Part shown: positions 169 to 46,381 of the stretch, piece by piece | Numbering within the stretch: position 1 is the stretch's first letter | How the letters are laid out: every line of letters begins with the position of its first letter | Source: Alphaproteobacteria bacterium | Lineage (GTDB): Bacteria > Pseudomonadota > Alphaproteobacteria > Rs-D84 | Reading direction: 5' to 3' | DNA: 46,381 nucleotides | Assembly: GCA_017471445.1 (NCBI GenBank) | Contig: JAFUTJ010000008.1 | Coordinates: 1-46,381 of the forward strand | Made by a program: the position numbers and the translations under genes | Notes under the pieces: model-generated | Databases searched by the model: none | Seen by the model: the letters and a program-made list of their open reading frames with translations, nothing else | What the model was told of the DNA's origin: nothing

Positions 169-966
169 CTAATTCACCGGCACTAATTTCCCACCCTGCC
201 CACGTGTGGCGTTAATCCAGCACACGCTGCCACCGCGTGGTACGGCCATGGCGTATTTTGTGTGCTTTCCCGCATATATATTTATTCCGTTCATTGCGGT
301 GTCACCAATCCGACACAGTGGCAAACACCGGTCATCGGATGTATGACCATACCCCGCATCACATTCCCATGGGCAATCGCCAACATCCGGTGTGCCGGGA
401 CCGGTATAGTACGCATCTGCCGGTGCATTTGTACATTTTCTTAATATGGTTGAATAATACTGATTTACTACATTTGCCACGTAATAACCGGCAAATGCCC
501 GTCTGTATAAAACCCGTTGAAATTTCGTATAGCCACCCGTACTCAGATTATAATAAAAAGATATGGCGTAAGTATGTGCTTCGTCGTAAATAACATCCCG
601 AACAACATAGCCACAGTCTGTTACGGCGATAATGTTCCGGCCCGCCGTAAAATAATAGGTTTCAACCTCGGCTTTCATTTTACTATAATCTGGGTTGGTA
701 AGGGGGACATATTGCGATATCAGGGTCTTAATTTGTTCTGTGGACATATTTTGTTCGGGACATGCGTGTCGTGCATCATCGCCCGGACAATAATATTTAT
801 CAGAACATTCCGTGCAAGAACCGGTATCATCCAACCAATATCCCTTGGCACACGTTGCGGCATGGGCCGTGCCGACAGCACATGCAACAATCAGTACCCA
901 AATACCCAACGCCAAATCAACCGAATGGCGCGATATAAACGGTCGAATCACAAACAATGCTGTCAT
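169..966 (-). CDS. Secreted Cys-rich variable protein, paralog A (265 aa, own RBS, no cassette)
   Basis: AAAAAGGGAAAAAAG-ATG at 966; signal peptide ending VGTAHA; YCPGDD motif; conserved C-terminus CTNAP...CPWECDAGYGHTSDDRCLPLCRIG...GGKLVPVN. Confidence 0.85.
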   Translation of the reverse strand: MTALFVIRPFISRHSVDLALGIWVLIVACAVGTAHAATCAKGYWLDDTGSCTECSDKYYCPGDDARHACPEQNMSTEQIKTLISQYVPLTNPDYSKMKAEVETYYFTAGRNIIAVTDCGYVVRDVIYDEAHTYAISFYYNLSTGGYTKFQRVLYRRAFAGYYVANVVNQYYSTILRKCTNAPADAYYTGPGTPDVGDCPWECDAGYGHTSDDRCLPLCRIGDTAMNGINIYAGKHTKYAMAVPRGGSVCWINATRGQGGKLVPVN

Positions 967-998
967 CTTTTTTCCCTTTTTATAAATTAAAAAATCCC

Positions 999-1172
999 CC
1001 GCAAAATCGGTGGTTGGAGGTTCATAACTATTACTCATTACAATAGCGTGCTTATTCAATATATTCACAGCCCTCCAACCCCGACGAAACTGGAATTGGA
1101 GAATATTTGCCCAACAACGTGGCCAAACATATGAGTAATGGGTTATGACGCCCAAACACGACTTTACGTGCC
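999..1172 (-). ncRNA. Rod-shaped structured RNA candidate (6S RNA-like or regulatory leader)
   Basis: Minus strand CGTAAAGTCG/CGATTTTGCG and TCATAACCCATTACTCAT/ATGAGTAATAGTTATGA closing stems, central bubble, apical CTCCAATTCC/GGGGTTGGAG stem; own promoter upstream. Confidence 0.5.
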
Positions 1173-1178
1173 ACAAGA

Positions 1179-1207
1179 ATAATACCAAAACCGCACAACA
1201 AAAACAA
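1179..1207 (-). promoter_or_regulatory. sigma70-like promoter for structured RNA / paralog A
   Basis: Minus strand TTGTTT-17 bp-TATTAT with extended -10 TG. Confidence 0.55.
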
Positions 1208-1214
1208 GCGGTAT

Positions 1215-2390
1215 TCAATACATGTTCGCAAAACGTAAACGATTTGACCACAACACAAACGTCGCCGCACAAATAATTGCAATAATGTACGGCATGTGCA
1301 CAAATTCAACAAAACCGAACATATGCGTAATACTGGACAAAATAAACGGTGTTAAAAATTGCGACATATACAGTGCCGCCGACAACAATGGCATTACCGT
1401 TGTCATCGCGCCACGCCCGGCAATTCCGGCGGCGGTGGAAATTATAAACGGAATGCCGATACCATTTGCAAAACCAATCATGGCCGAACCCACAATTGTT
1501 GCAAACCACCCGGGCGATGATACCAAGACACAATAACCACCCAAGAATAACATTGGCGCAACAAACCGAACACTGTTGCCAATTTTATGCTTTATAATTA
1601 CATAAGACATACCGCCAACAAACGCAACTAAATCCATTCCGGCCATTATTGGTGCAATATAATTGTGCGGTATTACGGCATCGTGTGCGGCAATTATTGC
1701 AAAGTTGCATGGGTATATAAAGAACACGAACATCAACAAAAACATCGCAACAATAAATCCATAATATTTGCGCATTGTTGCGCCAATTGATGGATGCGGT
1801 ACATTTACATTATGATCGGTCGGTACCATTCGTTCATTTGGCATAAATGCGGCACACATAATAATACTGACCAATCCAATCAGGTATACCAAGAAACTGG
1901 CGCGCCAACTGATTGTACTTAACACCCCAGACAGCAACGTCGCAACCACACCACCAACTTGGTTCATTGCCGACGACAGGCCCAATAATTTATCATGCCG
2001 GTCACGTGTATAATAGTATGTCAATAACCCCGTTGACATTGGCATAATAATACCAACCCCAATACCAACCAACGCACGCGCAAACAATACCATATATATA
2101 TTATTAAACACACCTGCGGCACACCCACCAACGGTGTACAATATTAACCCAATCATAACCAGTGTACGTGTACGAAACCGTGTACACAACCACGGGAACA
2201 CCATGTTTGCCAACACAATGAACAATGCAGGTACACTGATAATCAATTGTATCAATAATTTTGGCGCATCTGTGAAATATGCCGCAATAACATTCAATGC
2301 CGGCGCAACCGCGGCCCCGGCCATTACCGTCAACAATGATAATGACAATATAGATGCGGTAAATAAATGCTTTCTGTCTTTGTGGTTCAT
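1215..2390 (-). CDS. MFS transporter
   Basis: 391 aa, about 12 hydrophobic segments, MFS-like ARALVGIGVG motif, AAAAGGA RBS. Confidence 0.9.
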   Translation of the reverse strand: MNHKDRKHLFTASILSLSLLTVMAGAAVAPALNVIAAYFTDAPKLLIQLIISVPALFIVLANMVFPWLCTRFRTRTLVMIGLILYTVGGCAAGVFNNIYMVLFARALVGIGVGIIMPMSTGLLTYYYTRDRHDKLLGLSSAMNQVGGVVATLLSGVLSTISWRASFLVYLIGLVSIIMCAAFMPNERMVPTDHNVNVPHPSIGATMRKYYGFIVAMFLLMFVFFIYPCNFAIIAAHDAVIPHNYIAPIMAGMDLVAFVGGMSYVIIKHKIGNSVRFVAPMLFLGGYCVLVSSPGWFATIVGSAMIGFANGIGIPFIISTAAGIAGRGAMTTVMPLLSAALYMSQFLTPFILSSITHMFGFVEFVHMPYIIAIICAATFVLWSNRLRFANMY

Positions 2391-2535
2391 AAATTATTCC
2401 TTTTGTTTGCTTTCTTGCATAAAAAATACGCAAGGCCAAATTCAGTTTGGACTTACGCACTGTCGGCAACACAACCGTGGGGTTCAGTATATATTTTTTA
2501 TAAAAATAAATCAATTTTATTTTGGTTATCTTTTA

Positions 2536-3030
2536 TTAATTATTAAACAAATTCCATTCGTGTCGGCGGCGATTAACTAAACCATTTGATACAACACCAT
2601 GCGAATAATTCCATGCCATCCACGCAGATTTCAATGTCGGATATTTTATACTATGGAAATTTGGATTATTTATGTATTTCACAACTGTTGAAATTGTAAA
2701 ATTTTTGGTTCCTATATTGTACGCTAATGATACCAATGCATCATATTGATTTTGTGTTAATGGCACAACAACTGTGTTTTGCACAACACGTTCTGCCGCG
2801 GCAATGTCAACACGTAATAAATCCGTGGCGGCACGTTCCGTTATTCCATTTCCGAAACATTCGCCCGGCGTTATCAAATGCCCGTAACCAATTGTTGCAC
2901 CACGTGGCAACGGTTTATTGACATCAACCGCACTGCCCGTTTTATCGTCGTATATAACATGCCGTTTGTCATGTTTTACACAACCCTCCATTTGTTTTAT
3001 GAACTGTATACCATTATTACTGATTTGCAT
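2536..3030 (-). CDS. Phage-type lysozyme (GH24 muramidase)
   Basis: IKQMEG, TIGYGH, LTQNQYDALVSLAYNIG, GLVNRRRHE motifs. Confidence 0.9.
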   Translation of the reverse strand: MQISNNGIQFIKQMEGCVKHDKRHVIYDDKTGSAVDVNKPLPRGATIGYGHLITPGECFGNGITERAATDLLRVDIAAAERVVQNTVVVPLTQNQYDALVSLAYNIGTKNFTISTVVKYINNPNFHSIKYPTLKSAWMAWNYSHGVVSNGLVNRRRHEWNLFNN

Positions 3031-3123
3031 CTTAGATATTTTTCCCTATTGTAAAAAATCCCGTGAATGCACGGGACAAAATAAAAAAACGTGGCATGTG
3101 CCACATAACCTACCTGTCCCGGA

Positions 3124-3152
3124 ATTATATCACATAATAATAAAAAAATCAA
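3124..3152 (-). promoter_or_regulatory. sigma70-like promoter for lysozyme
   Basis: Minus strand TTGATT-17 bp-TATAAT. Confidence 0.55.
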
Positions 3153-3220
3153 CATTAAATCCCCAGAAACAGGGTGAAAAAGAACATCCCGTGGGATTGC
3201 CCCGGAATGTTCTATATTCC

Positions 3221-3311
3221 TGGCGGAGATGAAGGGATTCGAACCCTTGATACGGTTACCCGTATACCACATTTCCAATGTGGCGCACTAGACCAACTAT
3301 GCGACATCTCC
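3221..3311 (-). tRNA. tRNA-Ser(GGA)
   Basis: GGAGATG...CATCTCC-GCCA acceptor stem, CCACA-TTGGAAA-TGTGG anticodon arm, long variable arm, GTTCGAATC T-loop. Confidence 0.97.
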
Positions 3312-3328
3312 GGCAAACTTATAAAAAA

Positions 3329-3703
3329 CTATTCAGAATCTGTAGGGTCGTCCGATGCATCATCCACAGGTTCAACAACACTATCATCGGCCAATGCGTT
3401 TTCCAATTCTGCATCAATTTCACGCAATAATGGATCTTCGCTGCCGATTTCCAGGGATTCTTCACCTGTTTCAGAAACCGGGGTTTCTTTGTACGATTGG
3501 ACAAATTCATGACGTAACGCATCAATATCCAAATTACCACTGGCAATTTCGCGCAGTGCGACAACCGTCATTTTATCGTTCGCCCGGTCAACCATGGGCG
3601 TTGCGCCGCCGTTCAGGTCGCGAACACGCTGGGATGCCAACATCCCCAGTTCATAACGACTGTCCACGAATGGTAATGTATCAGAATTTGTTGTGCGTGC
3701 CAT
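3329..3703 (-). CDS. rpoZ: RNA polymerase omega subunit
   Basis: MART...SRYELGMLASQRVRDL...NDKMTVVALREIA with acidic tail typical of alphaproteobacterial RpoZ. Confidence 0.93.
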   Translation of the reverse strand: MARTTNSDTLPFVDSRYELGMLASQRVRDLNGGATPMVDRANDKMTVVALREIASGNLDIDALRHEFVQSYKETPVSETGEESLEIGSEDPLLREIDAELENALADDSVVEPVDDASDDPTDSE

Positions 3704-3754
3704 TGCAAAATCCTTTGTTGAAATCGTTTTTAACCCCGCTATAATGCCCCAAGG

Positions 3755-5002
3755 ATGGCAAAAATGCAAGCAGAAAATAATAAAAACAATATTAAAACAT
3801 TATCTTTTGGATGCCGGTTAAATGCATTGGAATCAGAAAAGATAAAACACATGCTGGGGCCGATAATTGATGCGGCAATTGTCGTGAACACTTGTTCCGT
3901 CACCGGCGAAGCCGAACGCCAATCGGCCCAGTCAATACGCCGTACCGCACGCGAAAACCCAGAAATTCCAATTTTTGTTACCGGTTGCGCGGCGACGCGG
4001 AACCCGGGGCTGTTCATGAAAATAAATAATGTTTTTGTTATTCCCAATGCCGACAAAATGAATTGCGCGGCATATACAAATGCAATTCGCAATTCTGATT
4101 TTAACTTTACCGCACATATTGATTTTGGGGGCGACCAAAAACTGTCCAAACAATTTATTCAGATTCAGAACGGTTGCAACCATGATTGCACATATTGCGT
4201 AACACGTCTGTTGCGGGGTACGGCGGTTTCATTTCCATACGCCGAAATATTGCACGATGCGCAATGTGCGGTAAAAAATGGTTTTCATGAAATCATACTG
4301 ACCGGCGTAGACAGTGCGTCATACGTCCGTACCGATAACGGCAACCCGTTCCTGTTATCAGACCTGTGCACGCGACTTTTATCCGATGTTTCAGAAATAC
4401 AACGGTTGCGGTTATCGTCGGTTGACCCGGCATCGCCCGAAATACCCAAGATTATAGAACTGATTCACAATGATGCGCGTATGATGGGGCATTTACATTT
4501 ATCAATGCAGTCGGGTTCTGATACTATTCTGGCGGCAATGCGACGGCGGCACACGACGGCACATGTGCGCAACTTAATGCATAATGCGCATGGTATTACG
4601 TTTGGTTGGGACATTATTTGCGGATTTCCCGGCGAAACCGACGAACTGTTTCGCGAAACATGCGAATTAGCGGCAGAAACCCACGTAATAAAAATTCATG
4701 CATTCCCATTCAGTCCGCGTCCCGGCACCGTTGCCGCCGACATGCCGAACCAGATTCCGCACAACATTGCCAAACGTCGTGTACATGAAATAACCGCCAT
4801 TGCCAACGGGAACCGTAATAAATACATGGTGACCCAGGTTGGAAAACGCGTATCTGTATTGGTTGAAAACAACAATGTTGCCAGAACCGCCGATGACATA
4901 CCGGTGCGTATTGCCGATAAAGAAATCACGCCGCGAACAATTTGCGACGTGACAATTAGCGATATTTGCAACGGCGAATTTATTGGTCACATAGACGCGT
5001 AA
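3755..5002 (+). CDS. mtaB: tRNA methylthiotransferase (MiaB/MtaB radical SAM family, MtaB-like)
   Basis: FGCRLNALESE, NTCSVT, GCNHDCTYC radical SAM motif, FPFSPRPGT. Confidence 0.85.
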   Translation: MAKMQAENNKNNIKTLSFGCRLNALESEKIKHMLGPIIDAAIVVNTCSVTGEAERQSAQSIRRTARENPEIPIFVTGCAATRNPGLFMKINNVFVIPNADKMNCAAYTNAIRNSDFNFTAHIDFGGDQKLSKQFIQIQNGCNHDCTYCVTRLLRGTAVSFPYAEILHDAQCAVKNGFHEIILTGVDSASYVRTDNGNPFLLSDLCTRLLSDVSEIQRLRLSSVDPASPEIPKIIELIHNDARMMGHLHLSMQSGSDTILAAMRRRHTTAHVRNLMHNAHGITFGWDIICGFPGETDELFRETCELAAETHVIKIHAFPFSPRPGTVAADMPNQIPHNIAKRRVHEITAIANGNRNKYMVTQVGKRVSVLVENNNVARTADDIPVRIADKEITPRTICDVTISDICNGEFIGHIDA

Positions 5003-5004
5003 AA

Positions 5005-5559
5005 TTAATAATCCAATATCTGACGAATTAATTCATCGGGCGTTGCGGCAACGTGAATTGTGTAGTCATCGCTGCTTTCAATGAAACCATTTTCTTGCAT
5101 TGCCAAGAACAGGTTACTGAAATCGTTCCAGAATTTTGCGGTGTTCATAAAAAATATCGGTTTATCAGATTCACCAATCTGTTGCATTGTCATAATGTCG
5201 GTAAATTCGTTTAATGTACCAATTCCGCCCGGCAATATTATAAACGCGTCGGACAAATCGTACATTTTTTGTTTACGTTCATTTACACCCGGCACAACAA
5301 TTGTTTCATTTAACCCATCATGCACCGGTTCTTGTTTTGCCATTACATTATGTGTTGAAACACCGGTTACGTGGCCGCCATTATTAACACACGCCGTGGC
5401 CGCGGTACCCATCAGCCCAACATCACCGCCACCAAACACCATGCGTATCTTGTTCCGGGCCAATAATTCACCCACACGCGCCGCGTCACGCATAAATTGC
5501 GGATTTGTTCCAAATTCATGGCCGCAATACACGGCAACAGACATTAATTTTTTATGCAT
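5005..5559 (-). CDS. LOG family (TIGR00730-like) nucleotide phosphoribohydrolase
   Basis: VAVYCG, GGGDVGLMG, ERKQKM, LPGGIGTLNEF; AAAGGA RBS before ATG 5559. Confidence 0.9.
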   Translation of the reverse strand: MHKKLMSVAVYCGHEFGTNPQFMRDAARVGELLARNKIRMVFGGGDVGLMGTAATACVNNGGHVTGVSTHNVMAKQEPVHDGLNETIVVPGVNERKQKMYDLSDAFIILPGGIGTLNEFTDIMTMQQIGESDKPIFFMNTAKFWNDFSNLFLAMQENGFIESSDDYTIHVAATPDELIRQILDY

Positions 5560-5605
5560 TATTTTTCCTTTATTTCTGAAAATTATAGCATAGAATTGCC
5601 ATGGT

Positions 5606-6610
5606 ATGAATAAAAAGTTTATTAATTTTATGAATGCATATCGGGGACAAAAATTGGCCGTCGCGGTCAGTGGCGGTGTCGATTCCGTATGTTTATTGGT
5701 GTGGTTGGCCAAAATTGGCGCAGACATTGTTGCGTTACATGTCAATCACGGTTTGCGACCGGCCGGTGATACAGAAACCCAATACGTGCAAAAACTGTGC
5801 CAGGAAATGGGTATACCGTGTCATACGTTTTATTGGCGTGGCCCCAAGCCGACGCGCGGACTGGAATCGGCGGCACGTGACGCGCGGTATAAATTTATGA
5901 CCGATTTTTGCCACAAAAATAATATTGATGCATTAATGGTTGCCCACCAATCCGACGATCAAATTGAAACGTTTCTGATGAACCTGGGGCGTGGCAGTGG
6001 TGTTTACGGTCTGGCCGCGATGCGGGCCATATCATTTCGCGACGGGGTAAAAATTGTACGTCCATTGCTGGGGGTGTCACGTGCAGAACTGCGCCAGTAT
6101 TGTGACGATAATAGCATTCGATACTTTTTTGACGAAATGAATGACGACACGCACTATACCCGTGTACGCATTCGTAAAAACCGCCATGTATTGGCGGAAG
6201 AACTGGGAATCAGTGACGCACGTATATTGTTGGCGATTGAAAACCTGGGCCGGGTGCGCGATTTCATGGACGGCGAAATTGAACGCATGGCGTGTTCGGT
6301 AATGTGTCGCGACCGGCGTGGCACATTCGCAATGTTTTCTGATTCTTTTCTGTTTGACCCGGGCGACGATATTAGATTAAAGTTGCTGGGGACATTAATT
6401 GTGCGCATTGGTGGCGACACATATCCACCGCGACTGGCATCGCTGAAACGTGGGGCGGAACAATTGCGTGGCGATGTTAAGTTCACACTGGGGCACTGTA
6501 CCGTGCGCCGGTTGGGCTCGCGTATAATTATTGTTCGCGAAGGTGAACTAACAAGTTTTAGGAAAAAATATGAAAGACACGAAAAAAAAGAAAAATCTGT
6601 TCAAGCGTGA
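5606..6610 (+). CDS. tilS: tRNA(Ile)-lysidine synthetase
   Basis: AVSGGVDS PP-loop, HVNHGLR, AHQSDDQIET; precedes ftsH. Confidence 0.95.
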   Translation: MNKKFINFMNAYRGQKLAVAVSGGVDSVCLLVWLAKIGADIVALHVNHGLRPAGDTETQYVQKLCQEMGIPCHTFYWRGPKPTRGLESAARDARYKFMTDFCHKNNIDALMVAHQSDDQIETFLMNLGRGSGVYGLAAMRAISFRDGVKIVRPLLGVSRAELRQYCDDNSIRYFFDEMNDDTHYTRVRIRKNRHVLAEELGISDARILLAIENLGRVRDFMDGEIERMACSVMCRDRRGTFAMFSDSFLFDPGDDIRLKLLGTLIVRIGGDTYPPRLASLKRGAEQLRGDVKFTLGHCTVRRLGSRIIIVREGELTSFRKKYERHEKKEKSVQA

Positions 6611-21937: not shown

Positions 21938-22669
21938 CTAATTCACCGGGAACAATTTGCCGCCATCACCGCGTTTTGCACTAATCCAACACGTCGCGCC
22001 ATTACGCGGAACGGCCATGGCGTATTTAGTATGCTTTTCCGCATATATATTTATACCATTCATTGCCGTGTCGCCAATCCGACACAATGGCAAACACCGG
22101 TCGTCGGATGTGTGGCCGAATCCATCATCACATTCCCACGGGCAATCGCCAACATCCGGTGTGCCCGCACCGGTATAGTGCGCATTTGTCGGCGCATTTG
22201 TGCATGGATTTACGTTTTTATAATTCGTGGTACCAGGCTTGTTCAGATTTGATACGTAGTAACCAGTTTGTGCAGCAGAACACAGACCGTTATAGTTTAC
22301 AACCGTATAATCTGATGATTCCATGGAATAGCCTAACACAATATACCTATCCGCGCATGTATCATCTTGCGCCTGACGTACACGCAGACCACACGCCATT
22401 ATTGATGTTGGGCCAACAGAAGCGTATGTTGATGTTTTTTTCAACATATTGTAATCTGAAATATTCGGTATCAAATTCAGAACATCCGACTTGGTCAAAT
22501 TGGTTTCTGGACATTCATAACTTAAATCATCCCCCGGACAGTAATATGACGAGATACAATTTGTACATTCACCATTGTTCATGTATTGCCCCGCGTCGCA
22601 TGTTGCGGCGCGGGCATTGGTTAAAATGCACATGCCAAACATCACACCCCATGCACAAAAAAACCACCG
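21938..22669 (-). CDS. Secreted Cys-rich variable protein, paralog B; start codon supplied only by inverted cassette (259 aa when ON)
   Basis: Fixed part begins RWFFCAWGVMFGMCILTNARA-ATC; YCPGDD; conserved C-terminus; no RBS+start facing the gene in this orientation. Confidence 0.85.
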   Translation of the reverse strand, partial: RWFFCAWGVMFGMCILTNARAATCDAGQYMNNGECTNCISSYYCPGDDLSYECPETNLTKSDVLNLIPNISDYNMLKKTSTYASVGPTSIMACGLRVRQAQDDTCADRYIVLGYSMESSDYTVVNYNGLCSAAQTGYYVSNLNKPGTTNYKNVNPCTNAPTNAHYTGAGTPDVGDCPWECDDGFGHTSDDRCLPLCRIGDTAMNGINIYAEKHTKYAMAVPRNGATCWISAKRGDGGKLFPVN

Positions 22670-22768
22670 TTTTTTTGTGCACAGGTAAAGGAAAATAAAA
22701 TGGCGGATTTCTGGGGTTTTGTAAAAACAATTTGTGCACCAAAAAAACGGTGGTTTTTTGGTGCACGG
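22652..22768. mobile_element. Putative invertible translation-start cassette, copy 2 (OFF orientation)
   Basis: Left site TGCACAAAAAAA-CCACCG-TTTTTTTGTGCA (perfect 12-6-12 palindrome, 22652-22681); right site 22734-22766 with inverted core; RBS+ATG at 22700 on + strand. Confidence 0.8.
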
Positions 22769-22790: not shown

Positions 22791-22819
22791 ATCATACCGC
22801 ATTCACGCATTTTTGACAA
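22791..22819 (-). promoter_or_regulatory. sigma70-like promoter upstream of cassette copy 2
   Basis: Minus strand TTGTCA-17 bp-TATGAT. Confidence 0.8.
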
Positions 22820-33718: not shown

Positions 33719-35797
33719 TTATGCCATTGTACCGACAGACATAGTAATACGGCGAATGCCACTGCTGATTGATTTTTCTTTGTTTATGTGTGCACGAATT
33801 ATTTCGCCGGTGTGATACACGTGCGTTCCACCACATAATTCGCACGAAACGTCGCCTGCGGTAATTACCCGCACCGTATCGCCATATTTTTCACCAAACA
33901 ACGCCATTGCGCCGCGCGATTTTGCCGCGTCAATTGGCATTTCTTCGTGCGAAACCGGCATATCGGCATTAATCCATTCATTTACCAGGTTTTCAACCGC
34001 CGTCTTTTCATCCGCGGTCATGGCACGCCCAAACGAAAAGTCAAACCGAACCGAATCTGGCGATACCTTGGACCCACGTTGTTCGACATCTGGACCCAAA
34101 ACACGTCGCAACGCCGCCTGCAACAGGTGTGTTGCCGTATGGGCACGCGTTATCTGGGTACGCATTGCCGCGTTTACAATCGGTGTAACGGTATCACCAA
34201 CCGATAATTTCTGGGTTAAAACGCCACGATGTACAACAACATTACCTGCGCGCGACGTGTCGGTTACAGACATTATCGACACACCATCACGATACAATTC
34301 GCCATTATCGCCAACCTGGCCACCCTGGGTGCCATAGAATGGTGTTTTGTCCATTGCAATTTCCACCATATCGCCCGATTCGGCCACATTTACAAATTCA
34401 CCGTCGCGTAAAATCGCCAACACCGTTGCCGACATATTATCACACGGCGCGTATTTTGCCGCATCATCGGTTGCCGGTAATTCACCACGCGATTCCCATA
34501 ATGTTTTGGTTCCACGCGTATCGGCACGCGAACGTTCACGTTGTGTTGCCATTGCGGCATTAAATCCATCAACATCAACCGTCATACCATATTCACGCAG
34601 AATCATTTGTGTTAAGTCCAACGGAAATCCATACGTATCATATAACTTGAACGCAACATCACCCGCCAACACACGTGAATTTCCGGCATTGTCACGATGT
34701 TCATCCAACATTTTCATTCCATTGCTTAACATATCTGCAAACGCATTTTCTTCATTCTGCAGAATTTCAACCACGCGCCCTTGTTCGCGCGCCAATTCTG
34801 GGTATGCCGCCCCCATTTCGGCAACCAACGCCGGGTACAGTTTCGACAGCAACGCCCCCCGTGCCCCCAGCATTTGCCCATGCCGCATTGCACGACGCAA
34901 TATACGACGAATCACATACCCGCGGTCGGTATTTGACGGAATAACACCATCGGCAATCGCAAACCCCACACTGCGCAGGTGGTCGGTTATAACCTTGAAC
35001 GATGAAATATTTTCCGCATTACGGTGCACCCCAACAACACTTTCGGTCGCATCCATTAAATGCTGAAACAGGTCGGTTTCATAATTATCGGTTTTGCCCT
35101 GCAATATCGCGGCCCAGCGTTCCAGGCCCGCCCCAGTATCCACGTTTTGCTTTGGTAATTTCGTTAAATTGCCATTTGCATCGCGGTCATATTGCATAAA
35201 CACATTATTCCATAATTCGACATATCGGCCGCCTTCGTCTGGTGCGCCGGGCAAACCACCCGGAATATCGGCCCCCATGTCATAGAATATTTCGGTATCC
35301 GGCCCACATGGCCCGGTATCACCCGCCGCCCACCAATTGTCATGGTCGCCCAGCCGTATCGCATCCAATCCCGCAACACGCCGCCATATTTCGGTTGATT
35401 CGTCATCGGTTTCATGTGTTGTAACAACAATCCGTTTTGGGTCAAAACCAATCACCCGGGTCAGCAATTCCCATGACATCGCAATTGATTCTTCCTTGAA
35501 ATAATCACCAAAGGACCAGTTCCCCAGCATCTCAAAAAAAGTATGATGGCGGCCGTCAAAGCCAACTTCGTCTAAATCATTATGCTTGCCCCCGGCACGA
35601 ATACATTTCTGAACATCGGCCACGCGCGGCGCGAATGCGGGTTCAAGGCCCTGTAAAATCCCCTTCCATGGAACCATGCCGGCAACCGTAAATAATAATG
35701 TCGGGTCATTCGGTATCAGCGATGCCGACGGCACAATCTTATGCCCATGCGATTGAAAATAGCCTAAGAACGCGTTACGTATTTCATCATATGTCAT
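33719..35797 (-). CDS. alaS: Alanine--tRNA ligase (692 aa, no C-Ala domain)
   Basis: DPTLLFT, RHHTFFEMLGNWSFGDYFK, DTGAGLER, HTATHLL, ELCGGTH. Confidence 0.96.
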   Translation of the reverse strand: MTYDEIRNAFLGYFQSHGHKIVPSASLIPNDPTLLFTVAGMVPWKGILQGLEPAFAPRVADVQKCIRAGGKHNDLDEVGFDGRHHTFFEMLGNWSFGDYFKEESIAMSWELLTRVIGFDPKRIVVTTHETDDESTEIWRRVAGLDAIRLGDHDNWWAAGDTGPCGPDTEIFYDMGADIPGGLPGAPDEGGRYVELWNNVFMQYDRDANGNLTKLPKQNVDTGAGLERWAAILQGKTDNYETDLFQHLMDATESVVGVHRNAENISSFKVITDHLRSVGFAIADGVIPSNTDRGYVIRRILRRAMRHGQMLGARGALLSKLYPALVAEMGAAYPELAREQGRVVEILQNEENAFADMLSNGMKMLDEHRDNAGNSRVLAGDVAFKLYDTYGFPLDLTQMILREYGMTVDVDGFNAAMATQRERSRADTRGTKTLWESRGELPATDDAAKYAPCDNMSATVLAILRDGEFVNVAESGDMVEIAMDKTPFYGTQGGQVGDNGELYRDGVSIMSVTDTSRAGNVVVHRGVLTQKLSVGDTVTPIVNAAMRTQITRAHTATHLLQAALRRVLGPDVEQRGSKVSPDSVRFDFSFGRAMTADEKTAVENLVNEWINADMPVSHEEMPIDAAKSRGAMALFGEKYGDTVRVITAGDVSCELCGGTHVYHTGEIIRAHINKEKSISSGIRRITMSVGTMA

Positions 35798-37987: not shown

Positions 37988-38003
37988 TTAAAAGGGAAAG
38001 ATT

Positions 38004-39650: not shown

Positions 39651-39688
39651 ATTTCGGATTTATGATTTGTAAAATTATATACGGACAG

Positions 39689-39716: not shown

Positions 39717-39789
39717 TTCGCGCAGCAAATCGCCGGGCGGTAACAAAAGACAGTGGCATAAAAGCCCCTGACGTGCACGAAATCCAAAA

Positions 39790-40089: not shown

Positions 40090-40199
40090 TATATTTGTAC
40101 GCTATTTTATCATGCGCATTGTGAAAAAACAAATTCGCACAAATGACGCACAATAATTTATTCTTGGTTTTTTATATAAAAATATGGTATAATTCGGAC

Positions 40200-40502: not shown

Positions 40503-40573
40503 CCCGTTGTTGACGGTCAAATAATTATATATCTGTTCGTATAACTTATTTGTATTATGGTTTTTGTTGTTAA

Positions 40574-41344
40574 CTAATTCACCGGAACTAATTTCCCGCC
40601 GATGTCGCGTATGGCACTAATCCAACACATACCATCGCCGCGTGGAACGGCCATGGCATATTTTGTGTGCTTTTCGGCGTATATATTTATACCGTTCATT
40701 GCGGTTTCACCAATCCGGCACAGCGGCAAACACCGGTCGTCGGATGTGTGACCGAATCCATCATCGCATTCCCACGGGCAATCGTTCGCGTTCTTAATCG
40801 TACCATCCGGGCTGTCCGGTGTGCCGGGACCGGTATAGTGCGCGTTTGCCGGTGCGTTGGTGCATGGCTTTACGCCATTGTACCAAACCTTATACGTGGT
40901 ACCCATATATGGCGACAGATAATAACCGGTTCCCGCCGCATAATAGTGTGTGCATTTAACGGGGTATTCTTGGCTGGTTGGGTCGTATGCAACCTCTGAC
41001 AGGCAACTATAATTCTTAGTATAAAAATATGCACTGCGATGACAACAGGTTATCCTGTCACGCTCGTAATACGTTGTGCCATTATATACAAATTGCGTCC
41101 GCCAAGAATTGATCCATACTTCGCCGACTGTAAAAGTATCATCAAAAAACTGTTCATATTTTCCCGCCCATTTATCTTCGGGACATTCGTATTGTGCGTC
41201 ATCGCCCGGACAATAAGATGTTTTGCCGCAATATGTACATTCGTTTTTAGAATTCAGATAAAAATTTGCCGGACAATTTGCGGCATGGGCATTGGTTAAA
41301 ATGCACATGCCAAACACCACACCCCGTGCACCAAAAAACCACCG
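40574..41344 (-). CDS. Secreted Cys-rich variable protein, paralog C; start codon supplied only by inverted cassette (272 aa when ON)
   Basis: Fixed part begins RWFFGARGVVFGMCILTNAHA-ANC; YCPGDD; conserved C-terminus. Confidence 0.85.
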   Translation of the reverse strand, partial: RWFFGARGVVFGMCILTNAHAANCPANFYLNSKNECTYCGKTSYCPGDDAQYECPEDKWAGKYEQFFDDTFTVGEVWINSWRTQFVYNGTTYYERDRITCCHRSAYFYTKNYSCLSEVAYDPTSQEYPVKCTHYYAAGTGYYLSPYMGTTYKVWYNGVKPCTNAPANAHYTGPGTPDSPDGTIKNANDCPWECDDGFGHTSDDRCLPLCRIGETAMNGINIYAEKHTKYAMAVPRGDGMCWISAIRDIGGKLVPVN

Positions 41345-41443
41345 TTTTTTTGTGCACGGATAAAGGAAAATAAAATGGCGGATTTCTGGGGTTTTGTAAA
41401 AACAATTTGTGCACCAAAAAAACGGTGGTTTTTTGGTGCACGG
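41324..41443. mobile_element. Putative invertible translation-start cassette, copy 3 (OFF orientation)
   Basis: Perfect 29-bp inverted repeat 41324-41352 / 41415-41443; RBS AAAGGA and ATG at 41375 on + strand. Confidence 0.82.
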
Positions 41444-41465
41444 CTTATTTCCCTGTACGCCACGC

Positions 41466-41494
41466 ATTGTAACATGTTCGGCGATTTTTTTCAA
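41466..41494 (-). promoter_or_regulatory. sigma70-like promoter upstream of cassette copy 3
   Basis: Minus strand TTGAAA-17 bp-TACAAT with extended -10 TG. Confidence 0.8.
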
Positions 41495-41543
41495 TATGTT
41501 TTTTATTAATTTTAATTTGATTTATTATTTCATAAAACTGTGC

Positions 41544-41569
41544 AAAAAAAACGCGGCGATGCCGCGTTT
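41544..41569 (-). terminator. rlpA terminator
   Basis: CGCGGC/GCCGCG stem followed by T8 on minus strand. Confidence 0.75.
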
Positions 41570-41585
41570 GATTATGATTTGATTT

Positions 41586-42476
41586 TTAAATGCTGTCTGC
41601 GTTAATCCACCGGCCATTTTGTAACAATCCCGGTGCCATGCCTTCGTTCGCGCGCAGCGAATCAATCACACGACGTGCATTGGATGCATCCAGGTTAATT
41701 ATACGCACCTTGTACATATCACCTTCGCGAACAACGGTCGCATTACCATATTGGCGCATTTTTGATACCAATGAATTCGCACTATCTTCGGCATAGAATG
41801 CCGCAACCTGAACACTGTAATCACCACCGACCGATGTCGTAACCGGCGTTGGTTCCGGCGCAGGCGCATACGTTACCGCGGGCGTTTCATCCACAGACGG
41901 CTGAACCGGTACCGTACCCATTGTCGCATTTTTCACCGCAATAGACTGGTCGCGCAGAACCTGAACCTGAACCTTGGATTGACCATTAATGCCAATTGCC
42001 CGCGCCGCCGCGGGTGACAAATCCATAATACGCGTATTTACAAAAGGCCCACGATTATTTACACGAACAACCGCAGATTGCCCATTGTCCAGATTTGTAA
42101 CCCGCGCAATTGTGGGTAATGGTAATGTCTTGCTGGTTGCGACCATTTGATTAACATCAAACGTTTCGCCGTTACTGGTCTTGGTACCATTCAGTTCGGT
42201 CGGAATTATACCCGCAACGCCGGTTTGATTATAAGACAAATCTTCCATTGGGATGTATTGAACATCTTCGACTTTGTACGCACTGCCGATATAATACTTT
42301 GGTGCCGCCGCCATCAGGTACGCGTCATTTAACACCGCGCCGCCATTATCGGTCGTAACAAGTGTTTCTTCGCCAAAACCGTCGGTGCCATAGCCCGCAT
42401 TGGTTGTGGTGTTTGTGCCCTGTTGACAACCGGCCAAGACCGCCGTCAAAACCGCCAATGAAACAATTTTTTTCAT
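41586..42476 (-). CDS. rlpA: Septal ring lytic transglycosylase RlpA with SPOR domain
   Basis: Lipobox LAGC, TSNGETFD, TLPLPT, VRVNNRGPF, MDLS, C-terminal VQVAAF. Confidence 0.9.
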   Translation of the reverse strand: MKKIVSLAVLTAVLAGCQQGTNTTTNAGYGTDGFGEETLVTTDNGGAVLNDAYLMAAAPKYYIGSAYKVEDVQYIPMEDLSYNQTGVAGIIPTELNGTKTSNGETFDVNQMVATSKTLPLPTIARVTNLDNGQSAVVRVNNRGPFVNTRIMDLSPAAARAIGINGQSKVQVQVLRDQSIAVKNATMGTVPVQPSVDETPAVTYAPAPEPTPVTTSVGGDYSVQVAAFYAEDSANSLVSKMRQYGNATVVREGDMYKVRIINLDASNARRVIDSLRANEGMAPGLLQNGRWINADSI

Positions 42477-42541
42477 GATTTATGACTCCTTACATTCCTT
42501 CATGTAACACATACTATCATAAAAAAAGGCCTGTTTCAACT

Positions 42542-44008
42542 TTATTTTAATATTTTGCAATCCATGAAATACGCAATGGGCAAATACAGAACCGCATACC
42601 CGCAAATTGCCGCGCCCATGATAAAGATTGACGAAACATTTATCAAACTTAACATCCACCCAAGCGCGGCCGCAACAATTGCAAACGCAATGCATGCGCG
42701 AATTGTGCGCCAATCAAACTGAATCAACCCGCGCCGCCGGCACGCCCGCCCCAACAGGTAATTTTTAAGATAACCACTGGCCACCACACCAATCGGTATG
42801 GCCAGGTAACCAACAAACGGGAACGCCACCAAATATATAACCGATGCCACCCCCAGGGAAATCATACTGGTTTCAACGGGCGTTTTCACATCTTGGGTTG
42901 CGTATAATGTCTTGCTATAAATCTGGCTGACCAGCATGGCGGGCAAAACAAACGCTTGAATCATTATTGCAATGGCGACGGCACGCGTTGACGTATGCGT
43001 CCACGCACCATATTCGAACAGGTATTGTATTATCGGTTCTGCCAACACAACCAGTCCGACAACACATGGTAATATTAACATTAACCCGCGACGCATTGCC
43101 GAATTTTGTTGAATATAAACACTGCGCATATTTTTTGCCGCAATTGCATTTGATAACGACGATATCAGTACCGTTCCAGCCGCCAAACCAATCATCGCGA
43201 ACGGCAATTGAACAATCCGGTCAGAATAATACAGCCACGAAACCGCACCACTTTGGAAACTGGCCACCAAGGTACCAATAATTATTGTAATTTGATAAAA
43301 ACCATTTCCGACAATACTGATTCCCAATTTCTTGAAAATATCTTTCATTTCGGCGTTCCAGTGCGGTCGCACAATACGCAATCCGAAATGTCGCCGCCGT
43401 ATTCGCCACAACAAAACCCCAAACTGAATCACGCCAGATAAAACAACCGTTATCGCCATGATATACAGCATACAGGTCGGCGCCCACACAATCGCCACCA
43501 ACATCGCAAATATCAACATAATATTCAACAACACCGGCATAAACGCGGCCAGTAAAAATCGCGAAAACGCATTTAATATTGCCGATAAAAACGCCGAACC
43601 ACACACAAATATCACGTATAAGAACATTATGCGCGCAATTTTAACGGTTAAATCCATCTTGCCCGGGTCGGCATCAAAACCCGGTGCCAATGCCCAAACC
43701 ACGATTGGCATAAATACTTCGAACACAATTGTTATAATTAACAATATGCACATCAGCCATGAAAACACATTTTTTGCAAACGATTCATCATGTTTTTTGG
43801 CGGCAAACATCGGAATAAATATTGCCGATAATGCCCCCTCGCCCAGTAAATCGCGGAATAAATTCGGTAACTTGAACGCGGCCAAAAACACATCAGACAA
43901 CCGCCCGGCCCCCAAACCACGTGCGATTAACATATCGCGAACGAAACCAAAAACGCGGCTGATGCCGGTCATAATGCCAACGCCGAAAATATTCCTGCCC
44001 AGTTTCAT
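42542..44008 (-). CDS. murJ: Lipid II flippase MurJ
   Basis: SRVFGFVRD, AFKLPNLFR...GEGAL, LYYSDRIVQLP. Confidence 0.95.
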   Translation of the reverse strand: MKLGRNIFGVGIMTGISRVFGFVRDMLIARGLGAGRLSDVFLAAFKLPNLFRDLLGEGALSAIFIPMFAAKKHDESFAKNVFSWLMCILLIITIVFEVFMPIVVWALAPGFDADPGKMDLTVKIARIMFLYVIFVCGSAFLSAILNAFSRFLLAAFMPVLLNIMLIFAMLVAIVWAPTCMLYIMAITVVLSGVIQFGVLLWRIRRRHFGLRIVRPHWNAEMKDIFKKLGISIVGNGFYQITIIIGTLVASFQSGAVSWLYYSDRIVQLPFAMIGLAAGTVLISSLSNAIAAKNMRSVYIQQNSAMRRGLMLILPCVVGLVVLAEPIIQYLFEYGAWTHTSTRAVAIAIMIQAFVLPAMLVSQIYSKTLYATQDVKTPVETSMISLGVASVIYLVAFPFVGYLAIPIGVVASGYLKNYLLGRACRRRGLIQFDWRTIRACIAFAIVAAALGWMLSLINVSSIFIMGAAICGYAVLYLPIAYFMDCKILK

Positions 44009-44090
44009 GGTTACACGTCCTCTGTTGAAAAAATATCTTTTATTTTTATTTGGTTGCAATTATACTGCGAATACCAAAGGAAATTCAAGT

Positions 44091-44813
44091 ATGAAAAAGT
44101 CACTGTTTTTATGTGCAATGTGCGCCACACTGGTGGCGTGCCAGTCGTCTGATACAAAAATCACACCACAACGCCCAATTGGTGAAATTTACGAAAGTGC
44201 GTACCGCGAATTTAATCGCGAAAACTATGACCGCGCCGCATCCGAATTCTTGGACGCAGAAAGCCAGCATCCATCGCACCCATACGCGGCCGATGCATTG
44301 GTTATGGCGGCGTATTCGCATTATATGGACGATGACTTTGCCGGGGCAATATTGGCGGCCGACCGGTTTATGCGTTTTCACCCGGGCCACCCAGATGTCG
44401 CATACGTATTATACCTGCGCGGCATGTGCTATTACCGCCAGGTCAGCGATGTTCGCCGCGAACCGGGTATGTCGGCATATGCCCTGCAACAGTTTCAGCA
44501 ATTGGTCAATCGTTTCCCAAATTCACCGTACGCCGACAACGCGCGTAATAAAATCACAATCTTAAAGAATTATATCGCGGGCAAGGTTATGTATTCCGCC
44601 CGCAATGAAATGCGCCGCCAAAATTGGCCCAGTGCAATATCGCACCTGCAATCAATCGTTACCGGTGCCCAAGAAACCGTCATGACGCCCGAGGCGTTAT
44701 ATCGCCTGACCGAATGTTATACGGCAATCGGATTGCCGCATCAGGCGGCGGGTTATGCCGAAATGTTGCGCACAAATTTCCCAGATAATGAATGGACAAA
44801 ACGGTTAAAGTAA
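44091..44813 (+). CDS. bamD: Outer membrane assembly lipoprotein BamD
   Basis: AAAGGA RBS, lipobox LVAC, TPR-like helices, FMRFHPGHPDVAYVLYLRG. Confidence 0.92.
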   Translation: MKKSLFLCAMCATLVACQSSDTKITPQRPIGEIYESAYREFNRENYDRAASEFLDAESQHPSHPYAADALVMAAYSHYMDDDFAGAILAADRFMRFHPGHPDVAYVLYLRGMCYYRQVSDVRREPGMSAYALQQFQQLVNRFPNSPYADNARNKITILKNYIAGKVMYSARNEMRRQNWPSAISHLQSIVTGAQETVMTPEALYRLTECYTAIGLPHQAAGYAEMLRTNFPDNEWTKRLK

Positions 44814-44920
44814 TAAAACGCGCAAAACTGCGCGTTTTATTTTTATCGCACCACACACAATGCAAAAAAAGAACGCCCCGTAAAAAGTGGAGAGAACAGG
44901 ACGCGCCGTACAAAGCGTGT

Positions 44921-45100
44921 TTAGTGCGAAACTTTTTCTTCTGTAAACACTTCGTGTTTGCGGGTTTTCGGGTCATACTTACGCATTTTCATCTTGCCCG
45001 CTGTATTTTCAGATTTCAGATTCTTGGTGGTTATATAAAAGCTGCCTGTTTCTTTGTTACGCAGCTGAATAACAACTTTATTACCTTTTTTAGATGCCAT
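44921..45100 (-). CDS. rpmG: 50S ribosomal protein L33 (59 aa, not in ORF track)
   Basis: MASKKGNKVVIQL...TGSFYITTKN...MRKYDPKTRKHEVFTEEK. Confidence 0.93.
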   Translation of the reverse strand: MASKKGNKVVIQLRNKETGSFYITTKNLKSENTAGKMKMRKYDPKTRKHEVFTEEKVSH

Positions 45101-45190
45101 TTTATTTTGCCCTTTATTATTATGCGACGAATTTTATGATAAAAATTACTGGAAATCAAGTGTTTTTTATCATAACATGTACACATATAT

Positions 45191-45275
45191 GGGCGTATGG
45201 CGAAATTGGCAGACGCGCTGGATTTAGGTTCCAGTGGGGCAACCCATCAGAGTTCAAGTCTCTGTACGCCCACCA
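45191..45275 (+). tRNA. tRNA-Leu(TAG)
   Basis: GGGCGTA...TACGCCC-ACCA, CTGGA-TTTAGGT-TCCAG anticodon arm, variable arm. Confidence 0.96.
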
Positions 45276-45280
45276 AATAT

Positions 45281-45312
45281 AAAAATCCCCGCATATTGCG
45301 GGGACTTATTTT
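45281..45312. terminator. Terminator after tRNA-Leu
   Basis: TCCCCGCA-TAT-TGCGGGGA stem. Confidence 0.7.
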
Positions 45313-45338
45313 GTACAATTTCAATTGATTGTTTTTAA

Positions 45339-45488
45339 TTAGCAACCACCGGTCGCATTGCCAATCAATTTAGAAATTGAAATATCTTTGTGCAGCAAGA
45401 AATCATATTCACAGTTGCCTGACTTGTATGACCCGGTGCAGGCCGCCAATGTCAAAACCGCAAACAATGCCAACATTACTTTTTTCAT
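45339..45488 (-). CDS. Small lipoprotein, YhfL/DUF4223-like (49 aa, not in ORF track)
   Basis: AAAGGAG RBS; MKKVMLALFAVLTLAACTG; NCEYDFLLHKDISISKLIG resembles YhfL NCSYDYLLHPAISISKIIG. Confidence 0.75.
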   Translation of the reverse strand: MKKVMLALFAVLTLAACTGSYKSGNCEYDFLLHKDISISKLIGNATGGC

Positions 45489-45627
45489 ATGGTTCTCCTT
45501 TCTGTTGAAAAAGTACGAATGTATTGTATCAACATATTCCCATTTTTCAAGTTTTATTTCCGGTTCAATGAATGTTATCAGATGTGCTGCTGTTGATTTA
45601 GATGTTTCATAACGACCAATGACGGAA

Positions 45628-46381
45628 CTAATTCACCGGGACCAATTTACCGCCCTGCCCTTTTTCTGCACTAATCCAACACGTTGCGCCACCGCGTGGT
45701 ACGGCCATGGCGTATTTGGTATGCTTTTCGGCGTATATGTTTATACCGTTCATTGCGGTTTCACCAATCCGGCATAACGGTAAACACCGGTCGTCGGATG
45801 TATGACCGAATCCATCATCACATTCCCATTCACAATTTGGTGTGCCATCGGTTGTATTTGCGGCGGTATAGTGTGCATTTGCCGGCGCGTTTGTGCATGG
45901 CATGCAATCTGATGCCGCGGCGGCGGTGTCCGTTGCCGTATATGTGCCCGCCGGGCATGCGGTATGTTCAACATCATTTGCACCAACATAAAAACCGAAA
46001 CCTGCCGCAATACAAATATCATGCGCCAATAACAGGTTTAAGTTCGCAAACTGAATATTCCAAGATGTTGGTTGTTTGCCCGTTACATTTGCATAATAGC
46101 CCGCATCACACTTGGTTAAATTATATTTGTACTGGCAATTGGTACCGCCAATATATTCCCCATTTAACACACCACAGTTATATGTTGTTATTCCGTGCGC
46201 AATCGGGACATCTGCAAATGTGGCACGGCAATATTTTGCCGCGGTAATAACATCAATGCTTGTATTAATGTAATATTGCTGAAAATAAATATAGTGTGGA
46301 TTAGATGTTGTAACAATTGGACATAGGTGCCGCGTATCATCGCCAGGGCAATAAAAATTGTAATTCTGTGATATATCGGCC
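45628..46381 (-). CDS. Secreted Cys-rich variable protein, paralog D (5' end beyond window)
   Basis: Frame stays open to the edge (...ADISQNYNFYCPGDDTRHLCP...); extra CPAGTY...C repeat; conserved C-terminus. Confidence 0.85.
   Translation of the reverse strand, partial: ADISQNYNFYCPGDDTRHLCPIVTTSNPHYIYFQQYYINTSIDVITAAKYCRATFADVPIAHGITTYNCGVLNGEYIGGTNCQYKYNLTKCDAGYYANVTGKQPTSWNIQFANLNLLLAHDICIAAGFGFYVGANDVEHTACPAGTYTATDTAAAASDCMPCTNAPANAHYTAANTTDGTPNCEWECDDGFGHTSDDRCLPLCRIGETAMNGINIYAEKHTKYAMAVPRGGATCWISAEKGQGGKLVPVN

Follow-up and report, generated by a model that had tools for sequence, protein, structure and literature searches.

The variable lipoprotein loci (vsa) of Mycoplasma pulmonis are switched by site-specific inversion, and Mpi is the global invertase of the invertible promoters of Bacteroides. 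Three published descriptions come close to the locus treated here. In Clostridioides difficile the switch of cwpV is a 195-bp invertible segment with neither a promoter nor an open reading frame inside it, one orientation of which is silent (Emerson et al. 2009, PMC2784873). In the Vpma/Xer1 system of Mycoplasma agalactiae (PMC2268961) inversion decides the working 5′ end of a variable exported multigene family, and Chanin et al. (PMC10028968) recognise a 'partial intergenic' category of invertons overlapping a gene start, which are mostly shufflon-like domain swaps. Here we describe a stretch of 46,381 nucleotides (the window), the first 46 kb of contig 19 in the assembly of an Rs-D84 alphaproteobacterium (GCA_017471445.1; 910,822 bp in 23 contigs, 88% complete; contigs are cited below as C with their number), which carries four genes of a family of Cys-rich exported proteins. 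Three of them, copies 2, 3 and 4, are headed by a miniature inverton, the class A leader, and copy 1 is headed by a structured RNA, the class B leader. We consider it likely that they belong to a lineage-specific, Sec-exported, disulfide-rich family whose expression is set gene by gene, by a class A inverton or by a class B leader.

Set beside the described systems, the locus would be of a known kind, the inversion-based phase variation of an exported multigene family; what is new in it is the probable miniature inverton that would move the start of translation, together with the candidate RNA leader. It resembles cwpV, a surface-protein gene switched with the help of a site-specific recombinase, in that the promoter stands upstream of the invertible segment, and, as in the cwpV model, a terminator-like hairpin with a T-run is found on one strand of the core in two related genomes (G137 and G187). 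Unlike that of cwpV, the segment measures only 77-78 bp and in its own genome carries the Shine-Dalgarno (SD) sequence, the ATG and the first 12-13 codons, so that part of an open reading frame does lie inside it, and about 19-21 loci share one site type here where cwpV is a single locus. A small genome, a variable exported multigene family and an inversion that decides the working 5′ end are also what the locus has in common with Vpma/Xer1. The Vpma and vsa systems, in contrast, move a single expression site among clustered silent genes, whereas here a separate promoter and a separate inverton stand before each gene, and the loci are scattered over many contigs; the Mycoplasma proteins are moreover lipoproteins, unlike the Cys-rich proteins, which have no lipobox. 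The Bacteroides invertible promoters show the same pattern, numerous scattered invertons of a single type in a gut bacterium, here probably with a shared recombinase, and class A falls, as an inverton overlapping a gene start, within the partial intergenic category; unlike in Bacteroides, the promoter is not in the flipped part and the segment is far shorter (PMC10028968). The terms 'start codon' and 'ribosome binding' are absent from the text of that paper, and we found in the open-access literature no description of an inverton cassette that moves a start codon, an SD sequence or the start of a signal peptide, a result that does not prove its absence from print. If our reading is true, the catalogue of invertons would gain a translational type, with start codon and signal-peptide start as the cargo of an unusually small segment.

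A probable miniature inverton at the gene start

The class A leader is present in 21 core copies genome-wide, on at least 12 contigs, and heads 17 frames, 11 of the Cys-rich family and six of a second exported family described below. Its order is a sigma-70-like promoter, site 1 (a 33-bp palindrome with the centre CCACCG), a core of ~52 nt and site 2 (a 32-bp palindrome with the centre CGGTGG), after which come GGGGTGTG(A/G)TG and then the hydrophobic part of the signal peptide. An inner segment of 77-78 nt is thereby bounded by two palindromic sites of 32-33 bp whose reverse-complementary 6-bp centres stand in opposite orientation; wherever the upstream side of a copy is intact, the promoter precedes the inverted segment and is not part of it. 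The original prediction had let two of the window genes start at 22669 and 41344; neither position is a start codon, and both fall within this regulatory DNA element. A conserved 'peptide' readable in frame upstream of copies 2-4 was likewise rejected as protein, being non-coding leader DNA.

Measured against the promoter and/or the gene, 17 cores are forward (11 complete and 6 cut by contig ends) and four are inverted (Table 1). In the four inverted copies the two sites have exchanged their inner arms, as a crossover at the centres would leave them, and in all four (4/4) the sequence AAAGGA, a spacer of 7 nt, an ATG and 12-13 codons plus KKRWFF... run in frame into the signal peptide and the mature protein. 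Forward copies have no SD/ATG start of that kind. When the 11 complete forward copies were inverted in silico, every one of them (11/11) came into frame despite differences between A6 and A7, T6 and T7, and 77 and 78 nt. Two near-identical loci are assembled in opposite states, the one at the end of contig 1 'on' and the one at the end of contig 13 'off': their flanks are identical at 86/87 and 283/290 positions, and their inner segments match (76/78) only after one of them is reverse complemented. All three class A copies of the window, as well as a leader fragment at 1-168, are in the 'off' orientation, in which site 1 followed by AAATTGTTTT scores terminator-like.

We propose that the segment behind the constitutive-looking promoter is flipped by a site-specific recombinase. 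In the ON orientation the mRNA would gain the SD sequence, the ATG and the 12-13 codons that complete the signal peptide; in the OFF orientation it would have no ribosome-binding site or start codon and would carry site 1 and then a T-rich tail. Judged from this layout, each inverton-headed gene is probably switchable on or off. On/off variation of the inverton-headed copies is likely. The variable repertoire with a constant module, of which the original prediction had spoken, makes a fair working model once the cassette-exchange mechanism attached to it is removed.

The inversions might instead be old and fixed, so that nothing switches now and the 'off' copies are silent or decaying, possibly serving as sequence donors for the few expressed genes. 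Orientation does differ only between loci and never within one locus, and some members are broken or truncated (C3:17763-18434, C22:161-376, C21:26517-26807), as this explanation would have it. We nevertheless think it unlikely, because the 11 complete 'off' copies all keep long frames that the flip would bring into frame despite compensating changes of tract length, the C-module of the proteins is under purifying selection across copies, a pair of loci with 97.6-99% identical flanks stands in opposite states, and the palindromic sites, asymmetric centres included, persist in species that share no more than 73% identity in their elements.

Those elements came from a BLAST search of the leader DNA in the genus, where true relatives were found only in two genomes, G180 (4 places) and G152 (1), at 72-73% identity; the other matches were fragments of 24-37 nt and were discarded. 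A 22-nt stretch of the core also had a single exact match among Joint Genome Institute (JGI) metagenome contigs, on a high-GC unrelated contig, which we regard as chance. The arms of the G180 and G152 elements differ in sequence yet remain palindromic, the centres CCACCG and CGGTGG are unchanged, and both orientations occur, forward at three G180 loci and reversed at one G180 locus and at the G152 locus. The pattern AAACCACCGTTT-N50-80-AAACGGTGGTTT is found in 17 of 151 genomes of the genus (16 times in the own genome, 5 in G180, 3 in G014 and 1-2 elsewhere), while the same pattern written backward as a control gave no match in the 151. In G038 a core ATG preceded by an SD sequence opens a frame of 133 aa as assembled, and by eye several other cores have SD and ATG on one strand. 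In other cores a GC-rich hairpin with a T-run on one strand replaces SD and ATG, namely in G137 (locus L072), in G187 (L077) and, more weakly, in G153 (L075), the hairpin cores lying each at about 1504-1590 or 179-263. This suggests that the flipping of a terminator, as in cwpV, and the flipping of a start codon are evolutionary variants of one element with two cargos.

The conserved centres bear as well on the thought that the hairpins act mainly as RNA or DNA structures, that is, as attenuators, slippage sites or template-switch hot spots, and that the inverted copies are by-products formed with no recombinase. Recombination between inverted repeats of 33 bp need not involve a specialised enzyme. 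Each site is a near-perfect hairpin, the A/T tracts vary in length between copies, and site 1 with its T-rich tail is terminator-like. This account is in our estimate quite improbable, as the asymmetric centre is conserved while the arms differ between species, the exchange of the inner arms is just what a crossover at the centre would produce, and the frame is kept in 15/15 complete copies.

The exported Cys-rich family

Four paralogous frames on the minus strand had been proposed in the window, and translation and alignment of these frames bore them out, together with the shared N-module (YCPGDD..CP) and C-module: 77 columns are invariant in the four-copy alignment, and from CPWECD onward nearly every position up to the C-terminus is so. 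Identity among the four window copies across the last 72 codons is 81-86% for the protein and 77-81% for the DNA. A tblastn search of the own genome with copy 4 returned 46 matches at E ≤ 1e-3, full C-modules scoring E 1e-39 to 1e-83, values that exclude chance similarity. Counting members with a hidden Markov model of the C-module, a check suggested along with the original prediction, gave 39 of 8,245 stop-to-stop frames in the own genome, and the family is thus greatly expanded. The whole module is present in 33 of the 39 frames and 11 run off contig ends, while 23 copies lie inside contigs and are complete, leader, signal peptide and stop included. As a family frame is found no further than 1.2 kb from 22 of the 46 contig ends, the assembly evidently broke at repeats, and some of the contig-end fragments may be halves of one gene. 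Contig ends and run-off frames of this number could also be taken to mean that misjoined repeats produced the apparent inversions and inflated the copy number. We hold such an artefact to be highly improbable, since the copies differ throughout (identity of the centres has a mean of 0.52 and a maximum of 0.91), the complete genes lie inside contigs, the inverted copies have matching arm swaps and open frames, and the family and both orientations recur in other species that were assembled independently.

A search of 5.8 billion proteins yielded 54 relatives, none of them informatively named (one is a 'hypothetical protein [bacterium]'). Among genome records, relatives lie at 20 loci, 21 of 46 candidate stretches having been confirmed. 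The metagenome-assembled genomes (MAGs) that hold these loci are labelled Candidatus Enterousia sp., (uncultured) Alphaproteobacteria bacterium, Rickettsiales bacterium or 'bacterium', and among the relatives found the homologues are restricted to small-genome gut Alphaproteobacteria (Candidatus Enterousia-like MAGs). In a profile search 58 of the 121 genomes from the order had the family, as did 51 of the 81 from the genus to which the window belongs, mostly with 1-8 matches per genome; it is expanded in only some species: at least 23 matches in the own genome, at least 20 in G046 and at least 17 in G091. The last ~60 positions of the profile also match the C-terminal ends of unrelated frames, with lengths from 134 to 3,299 aa, in related genomes, which makes this stretch a general end-module in the lineage. 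Two homologues from NCBI (P0039 and P0046, 419-425 aa) consist of two tandem family units, the first of which keeps the C-terminal module internally.

The constant ends had been expected to be similar also at the level of DNA and to support cassette exchange by homologous recombination. Similarity of the C-module DNA proved moderate. Over the last 72 codons of the 23 complete copies the DNA is 81% identical on average, about half of the synonymous sites being changed (proportion of synonymous differences, pS, 0.49; of nonsynonymous differences, pN, 0.10; ratio of nonsynonymous to synonymous rates, dN/dS, 0.13). With such values the constancy of the C-module is due to purifying selection on the protein; recent gene conversion or homogenisation of the DNA is ruled out by the pS, and frequent DNA exchange is not what keeps the flanks constant. 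Nor is there a silent-cassette architecture, each complete copy having its own leader, signal peptide and stop. Mosaicism is nevertheless evident from the pairwise identities of segments across copies, on which this analysis rests: the identities of leader, N-part, centre and C-part are uncorrelated (Spearman 0.02-0.25), so that the genes are mosaics of modules with different histories. The copies at C19:184206 and C21:38039, for instance, agree at 91% in the centre and 92% in the N-part and at 52% in the leader and 73% in the C-part, and nine pairs have leaders at least 85% identical with centres below 50%. Histories of leader, centre and C-module are thus incongruent, as a test for mosaicism proposed beforehand was meant to reveal. 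The centres, said to align barely, are indeed variable, but they are not unalignable, as a Cys and a GYY(L/V)S motif are kept across the wider family.

Export of the proteins, which the original prediction had assumed, agrees with the signal peptide of the A-x-A type that stands before the Cys-rich mature part in every complete copy. Read by eye, the N-termini of the complete copies consist of a basic n-region, a hydrophobic stretch, the A-x-A site and then the A-[TNQ]-C of the first Cys-knot, and distant homologues have textbook signal peptides. The junctions are A-x-A / A-[TNQ]-C and their first Cys belongs to the conserved Cys-knot; judged by eye against the lipobox rule, by which the Cys directly follows a small residue at the cleavage site, they are not lipoboxes. 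The chain has four parts, namely the signal peptide, an N-terminal Cys-knot (C..G.Y..C..C..YCPGDD..CP), a variable beta-rich centre, and a second Cys-rich unit (CTNAP.NAHYTG..CPWECD) with the C-module, a strongly constrained C-terminal beta module. Mature chains are 222-250 residues long, of which 12-15 are Cys and 16-23 are Tyr.

Three of the four window proteins reach the cut-off of no Pfam family, and the fourth scores 14.1 bits with PF07699 Ephrin_rec_like (cut-off 23.1, E 0.04); none of the four has a match in NCBIfam, and eight homologues gave sub-threshold matches only in the two databases. A precomputed table lists PF26010.1 for 4 of the 54 homologues. AlphaFold2, given copy 3 with an alignment of 49 sequences, predicts an all-beta chain (predicted local distance difference test, pLDDT, 91.4; predicted template modelling score, pTM, 0.78), a single compact fold that includes the centre, which further limits the claim that the centres barely align. 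The best match of the whole model in a Foldseek search of the PDB is the TNF-receptor 4-1BB (E 0.02, TM 0.15-0.27), and the best VIA matches, a CatSper subunit and the Cys-rich domain of CaSR, reach Z 4.5, which is under that tool's own meaningful level. For the C-module by itself (pLDDT 80.6) VIA gives Z ≤ 3.3 (poxvirus TNF receptor CrmE and CCP modules) and Foldseek a best E of 0.86, and in the ESM Atlas the best score is 0.83, under 0.9, all matches being 'hypothetical protein'. On these models two TNF-receptor-like Cys-rich knots are plausible, and the remainder has no recognised relative. The likeness to the Cys-rich domains of TNF receptors, ephrin receptors and CaSR consists in the spacing of Cys around aromatic and Gly residues and in weak matches; unlike in those proteins and in the Cys-rich surface proteins of protists, the central beta domain and the C-module are without counterpart and there is no C-terminal membrane anchor. 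The protist analogy drawn in the original prediction is therefore one of architecture, as neither a Pfam cut-off nor more than a weak TNF-receptor-type fold match was obtained.

If the proteins are held in the cell envelope, the C-terminal module would be a common handle for their sorting or anchoring and the variable centre the part that meets the outside world. They might also be exported without forming a surface coat, as soluble periplasmic or released binding proteins, effectors or toxins, the C-module then being a tag for a secretion route such as a secretin. A mature chain with no transmembrane segment, lipobox or beta-barrel signal, the one secretin gene of the genome and a fold without adhesin-like repeats speak for this possibility, which we regard as doubtful though far from negligible: phase-variable, mosaic and expanded families are typically under selection from outside, a circumstance that secreted effectors would fit too.

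A structured RNA leader

The class B leader folds into three stems followed by an intrinsic terminator (Table 1). P1 (GGUUGGAGG/CCUCCAACC) pairs an SD-like GGAGG with an anti-SD-like CCUCC, P2 covaries and closes a conserved loop (GAAUAUAYYGAAUAAR), and P3 completes the junction; the 5′ strand of the terminator hairpin overlaps P1 by 2 nt. RNAalifold, run on a plain MAFFT alignment, gave P1 only, and the structure was then written by hand and tested by pair counts. Across 17 copies of the own genome 90.0% of cells are paired, and sliding the partners lowers this to 33-54%; both sides have changed in 11 of the 21 pairs, and none of 500 shuffles reached the covariation score. Among the 22 top matches from 19 other genomes 96.8% are paired (0/500 shuffles), with covariation mainly in P2 and the terminator, in an alignment that was fitted to the model and holds best matches only and so leans toward the structure.

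The covariance model of class B has 29 matches in the own genome and more than 1,200 in all, with at least 40 in each of ten other genomes, and matches occur in 93 of 101 genomes of the genus. Downstream of 27 of the 29 own matches an open reading frame follows within 110 nt, in 25 of the 29 one with a hydrophobic N-terminal stretch; 13 of the genes so headed belong to the Cys-rich family and seven, by eye, to the second family. In Rfam no family matches the window at its gathering score, the best of the weak matches being WsnRNA46 (17.5 vs 65.3 bits, E 0.98). That class B might be a further inverton was considered and rejected, all 19 copies of its motif having the same orientation relative to the gene. 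Like the leaders of riboswitches and attenuators, it places a conserved, covarying multi-stem junction directly before an intrinsic terminator and then SD and ATG; unlike the described riboswitch leaders it matches no Rfam family and is present in an unusually high number of copies in its own genome. A structured leader joined to an intrinsic terminator probably acts by conditional attenuation, and in copy 1 it would gate the gene in this way. Class B is named here as a candidate new class of regulatory RNA.

Family genes often stand as tandem pairs, the promoter of a gene under a class A leader lying ~10-15 nt past the stop of one under a class B leader. Such pairs stand at window 169 and 1-168 and at C3:37692-37758, C13:6609, C1:43298 and C18:148. 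The contig start cuts the window fragment, and the next family gene is missing for that reason.

A wider reading, possible and put forward tentatively, joins the two leaders. According to it some 20 miniature translational invertons would share an invertase, class B would be a new and abundant riboswitch-like leader with 10 to more than 40 copies per 0.9-Mb genome, and the Cys-rich proteins, of a new fold, would be organs of contact with a host or partner. The invertons could then set combinatorial on/off states of two protein families, the riboswitch-like leader could gate the other members, and the two devices might serve most of the exported-protein repertoire.

Recombinase candidates, the second family and the genomic setting

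The sites of the inverton, with A/T tracts around a short asymmetric centre, presumably resemble crossover half-sites of the Hin/Gin type. The own genome has three Phage_integrase matches (two Xer-like proteins and a 406-aa integrase) and nine Resolvase matches (about four intact serine recombinases of 200 aa, broken ones and two larger), which is many for 0.9 Mb; several serine recombinases at C19:74-101 kb, together with the 406-aa integrase, may form an integrated element. In sum these come to about seven serine-recombinase genes or fragments and three tyrosine-recombinase genes; among the candidates for the flipping enzyme are the serine recombinases of ~200 aa and a tyrosine recombinase at C19:85045-86277. 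Relatives of a 205-aa serine recombinase are found in 113 of 151 genomes of the genus, including all 17 that have the site pattern.

Several observations weigh against gene-by-gene control of an exported family by active inversion and must be set beside the evidence above. The recombinase genes are candidates, none of them tied to the sites, and with the small serine recombinase present in 113/151 genomes, which are not independent of one another, its presence in 17/17 inverton genomes is uninformative. About 90 bp between the crossover points is very short for recombinase-mediated inversion. The two orientations were seen across paralogous loci and across species, a pattern that old fixed inversions could also give, and in Logan the contigs of 4 public runs from one study break off at the repeat borders, 22594 and 22779, without spanning the inverton, so that no record ties orientation to unique flanks. 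Downstream genes in G180 and G137 possess an SD and an ATG of their own behind site 2, and the G180 core has ATC where that of the own genome (G000) has ATG, so that the start-codon mechanism is not general in the genus. On the side of the protein, the C-terminal residues that close unrelated frames fit the constant anchoring or secretion module of the original prediction, but no known anchoring or secretion domain was recognised by Pfam, NCBIfam or the fold searches with the C-module. For the disulfide-rich chains one DsbA-like (Thioredoxin_4) gene was found, the sole one, at C12:2119-2625 (+), with an inverton-headed Cys-rich gene ~1.2 kb upstream of it; neither DsbB nor VKOR was detected in the own genome at its 88% completeness. 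Even with these points given their due, we keep the control of a Sec-exported family by class A and class B leaders as the likely reading. The family, its export signals, the mosaicism, the two orientations of the segment and the conserved frame are seen in the sequence, while active switching, the enzyme behind it, a place in the envelope and a part in contacting a host or partner cell are what we infer.

A second exported multigene family was noted beside the first. It has a constant N-terminal domain (ELPENVKFCIPKQY...; pattern (E/D)LP.N..FCIPKQY...WRV.D.DTIITPNTTLPYTY) and very different C-terminal parts; both leader types are common to it and the Cys-rich family, and two of its inverton-headed genes are assembled 'on'.

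Table 1. Coordinates of the family genes, their leaders and related features; positions without a contig number refer to the window.
Feature	Position	Strand	Details
Class A leader fragment, just downstream of copy 1	1..168	-	promoter 156..128, site 1 103..71, core 53..32; 'off'
Copy 1, complete coding sequence	169..966	-	ATG 966, predicted signal-peptide cleavage before 858, C-module from 435, stop 169-171
Class B leader of copy 1	964..1082	-	three-way-junction RNA, then terminator hairpin, U-run, SD, ATG; model R1 matches 982-1080, 98.2 bits
Copy 2, mature protein part and stop	21938..22606	-	signal-peptide h- and c-regions in 22607-22672
Copy 2, invertible leader	22651..22766	-	site 1 22766..22734 (33-bp palindrome, CCACCG), 78-nt inner segment, site 2 22682..22651 (CGGTGG); assembled in the orientation without SD and ATG
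Copy 2, sigma-70-like promoter	22791..22819	-	TTGTCA-17-TATGAT, 10/12; outside the invertible segment
Copy 3, mature protein part and stop	40574..41281	-	protein taken for the structure model
Copy 3, invertible leader	41326..41441	-	site 1 41441..41409, site 2 41357..41326; 'off'
Copy 3, promoter-like site	41466..41494	-	TTGAAA-17-TACAAT
Copy 4, C-terminal 250 codons	45628..46381	-	gene and 'off' invertible leader continue past the window; core at contig position 46571
Inverted ('on') cores	contig 1 at 43432; contig 2 at 1809; contig 15 at 3322 and 20761		
Second family, class A-led	C2:1783, C9:16689, C12:77, C13:77, C15:3296, C16:8041		
Second family, class B-led	C5:21910, C3:97325, C9:24908, C3:70880, C3:53833, C2:7479, C15:19787		
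Serine-recombinase genes	C3:113946-114560; C9:35690-36271; C19:74879-75388; C6:63558-64133		
Further serine-recombinase genes	C19:100757-101405; C6:38294-38770; C9:36804-38465; C19:87346-88422		C19:100757-101405 split; C6:38294-38770 partial

Genomes of the genus measure 0.6-1.1 Mb. A published paper on Rs-D84 / Enterousia (PMC12306168) describes genomes below 1 Mb without synthesis of amino acids, nucleotides and lipids, without respiration and without standard transporters, and predicts Rs-D84 to be probably obligate symbionts or parasites that depend on a partner. According to the same paper these bacteria are widespread in animal guts, their food source and attachment target not being established; it mentions 'hypothetical membrane-bound proteins' in general terms only, and the Cys-rich family is absent from its text. 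Against this background a small genome gives about 3.4% of its assembled DNA, the sum of the 39 family frames, to one mosaic exported family with a dedicated DNA switch and an RNA leader, and the family and its leaders point to molecules that may mediate the dependence on a partner.

The window is otherwise ordinary for a Gram-negative bacterium, with housekeeping genes (among them BamA, BamD, MurJ, an RlpA-like protein, FtsH, GroEL, alanyl-tRNA synthetase, TrmD, RimM and S16) and includes three tRNA genes. The frame of the alanyl-tRNA synthetase (33719-35797, minus strand) has 692 aa, with catalytic and SAD domains and apparently without the usual C-terminal extension, a shortness that fits genome reduction.

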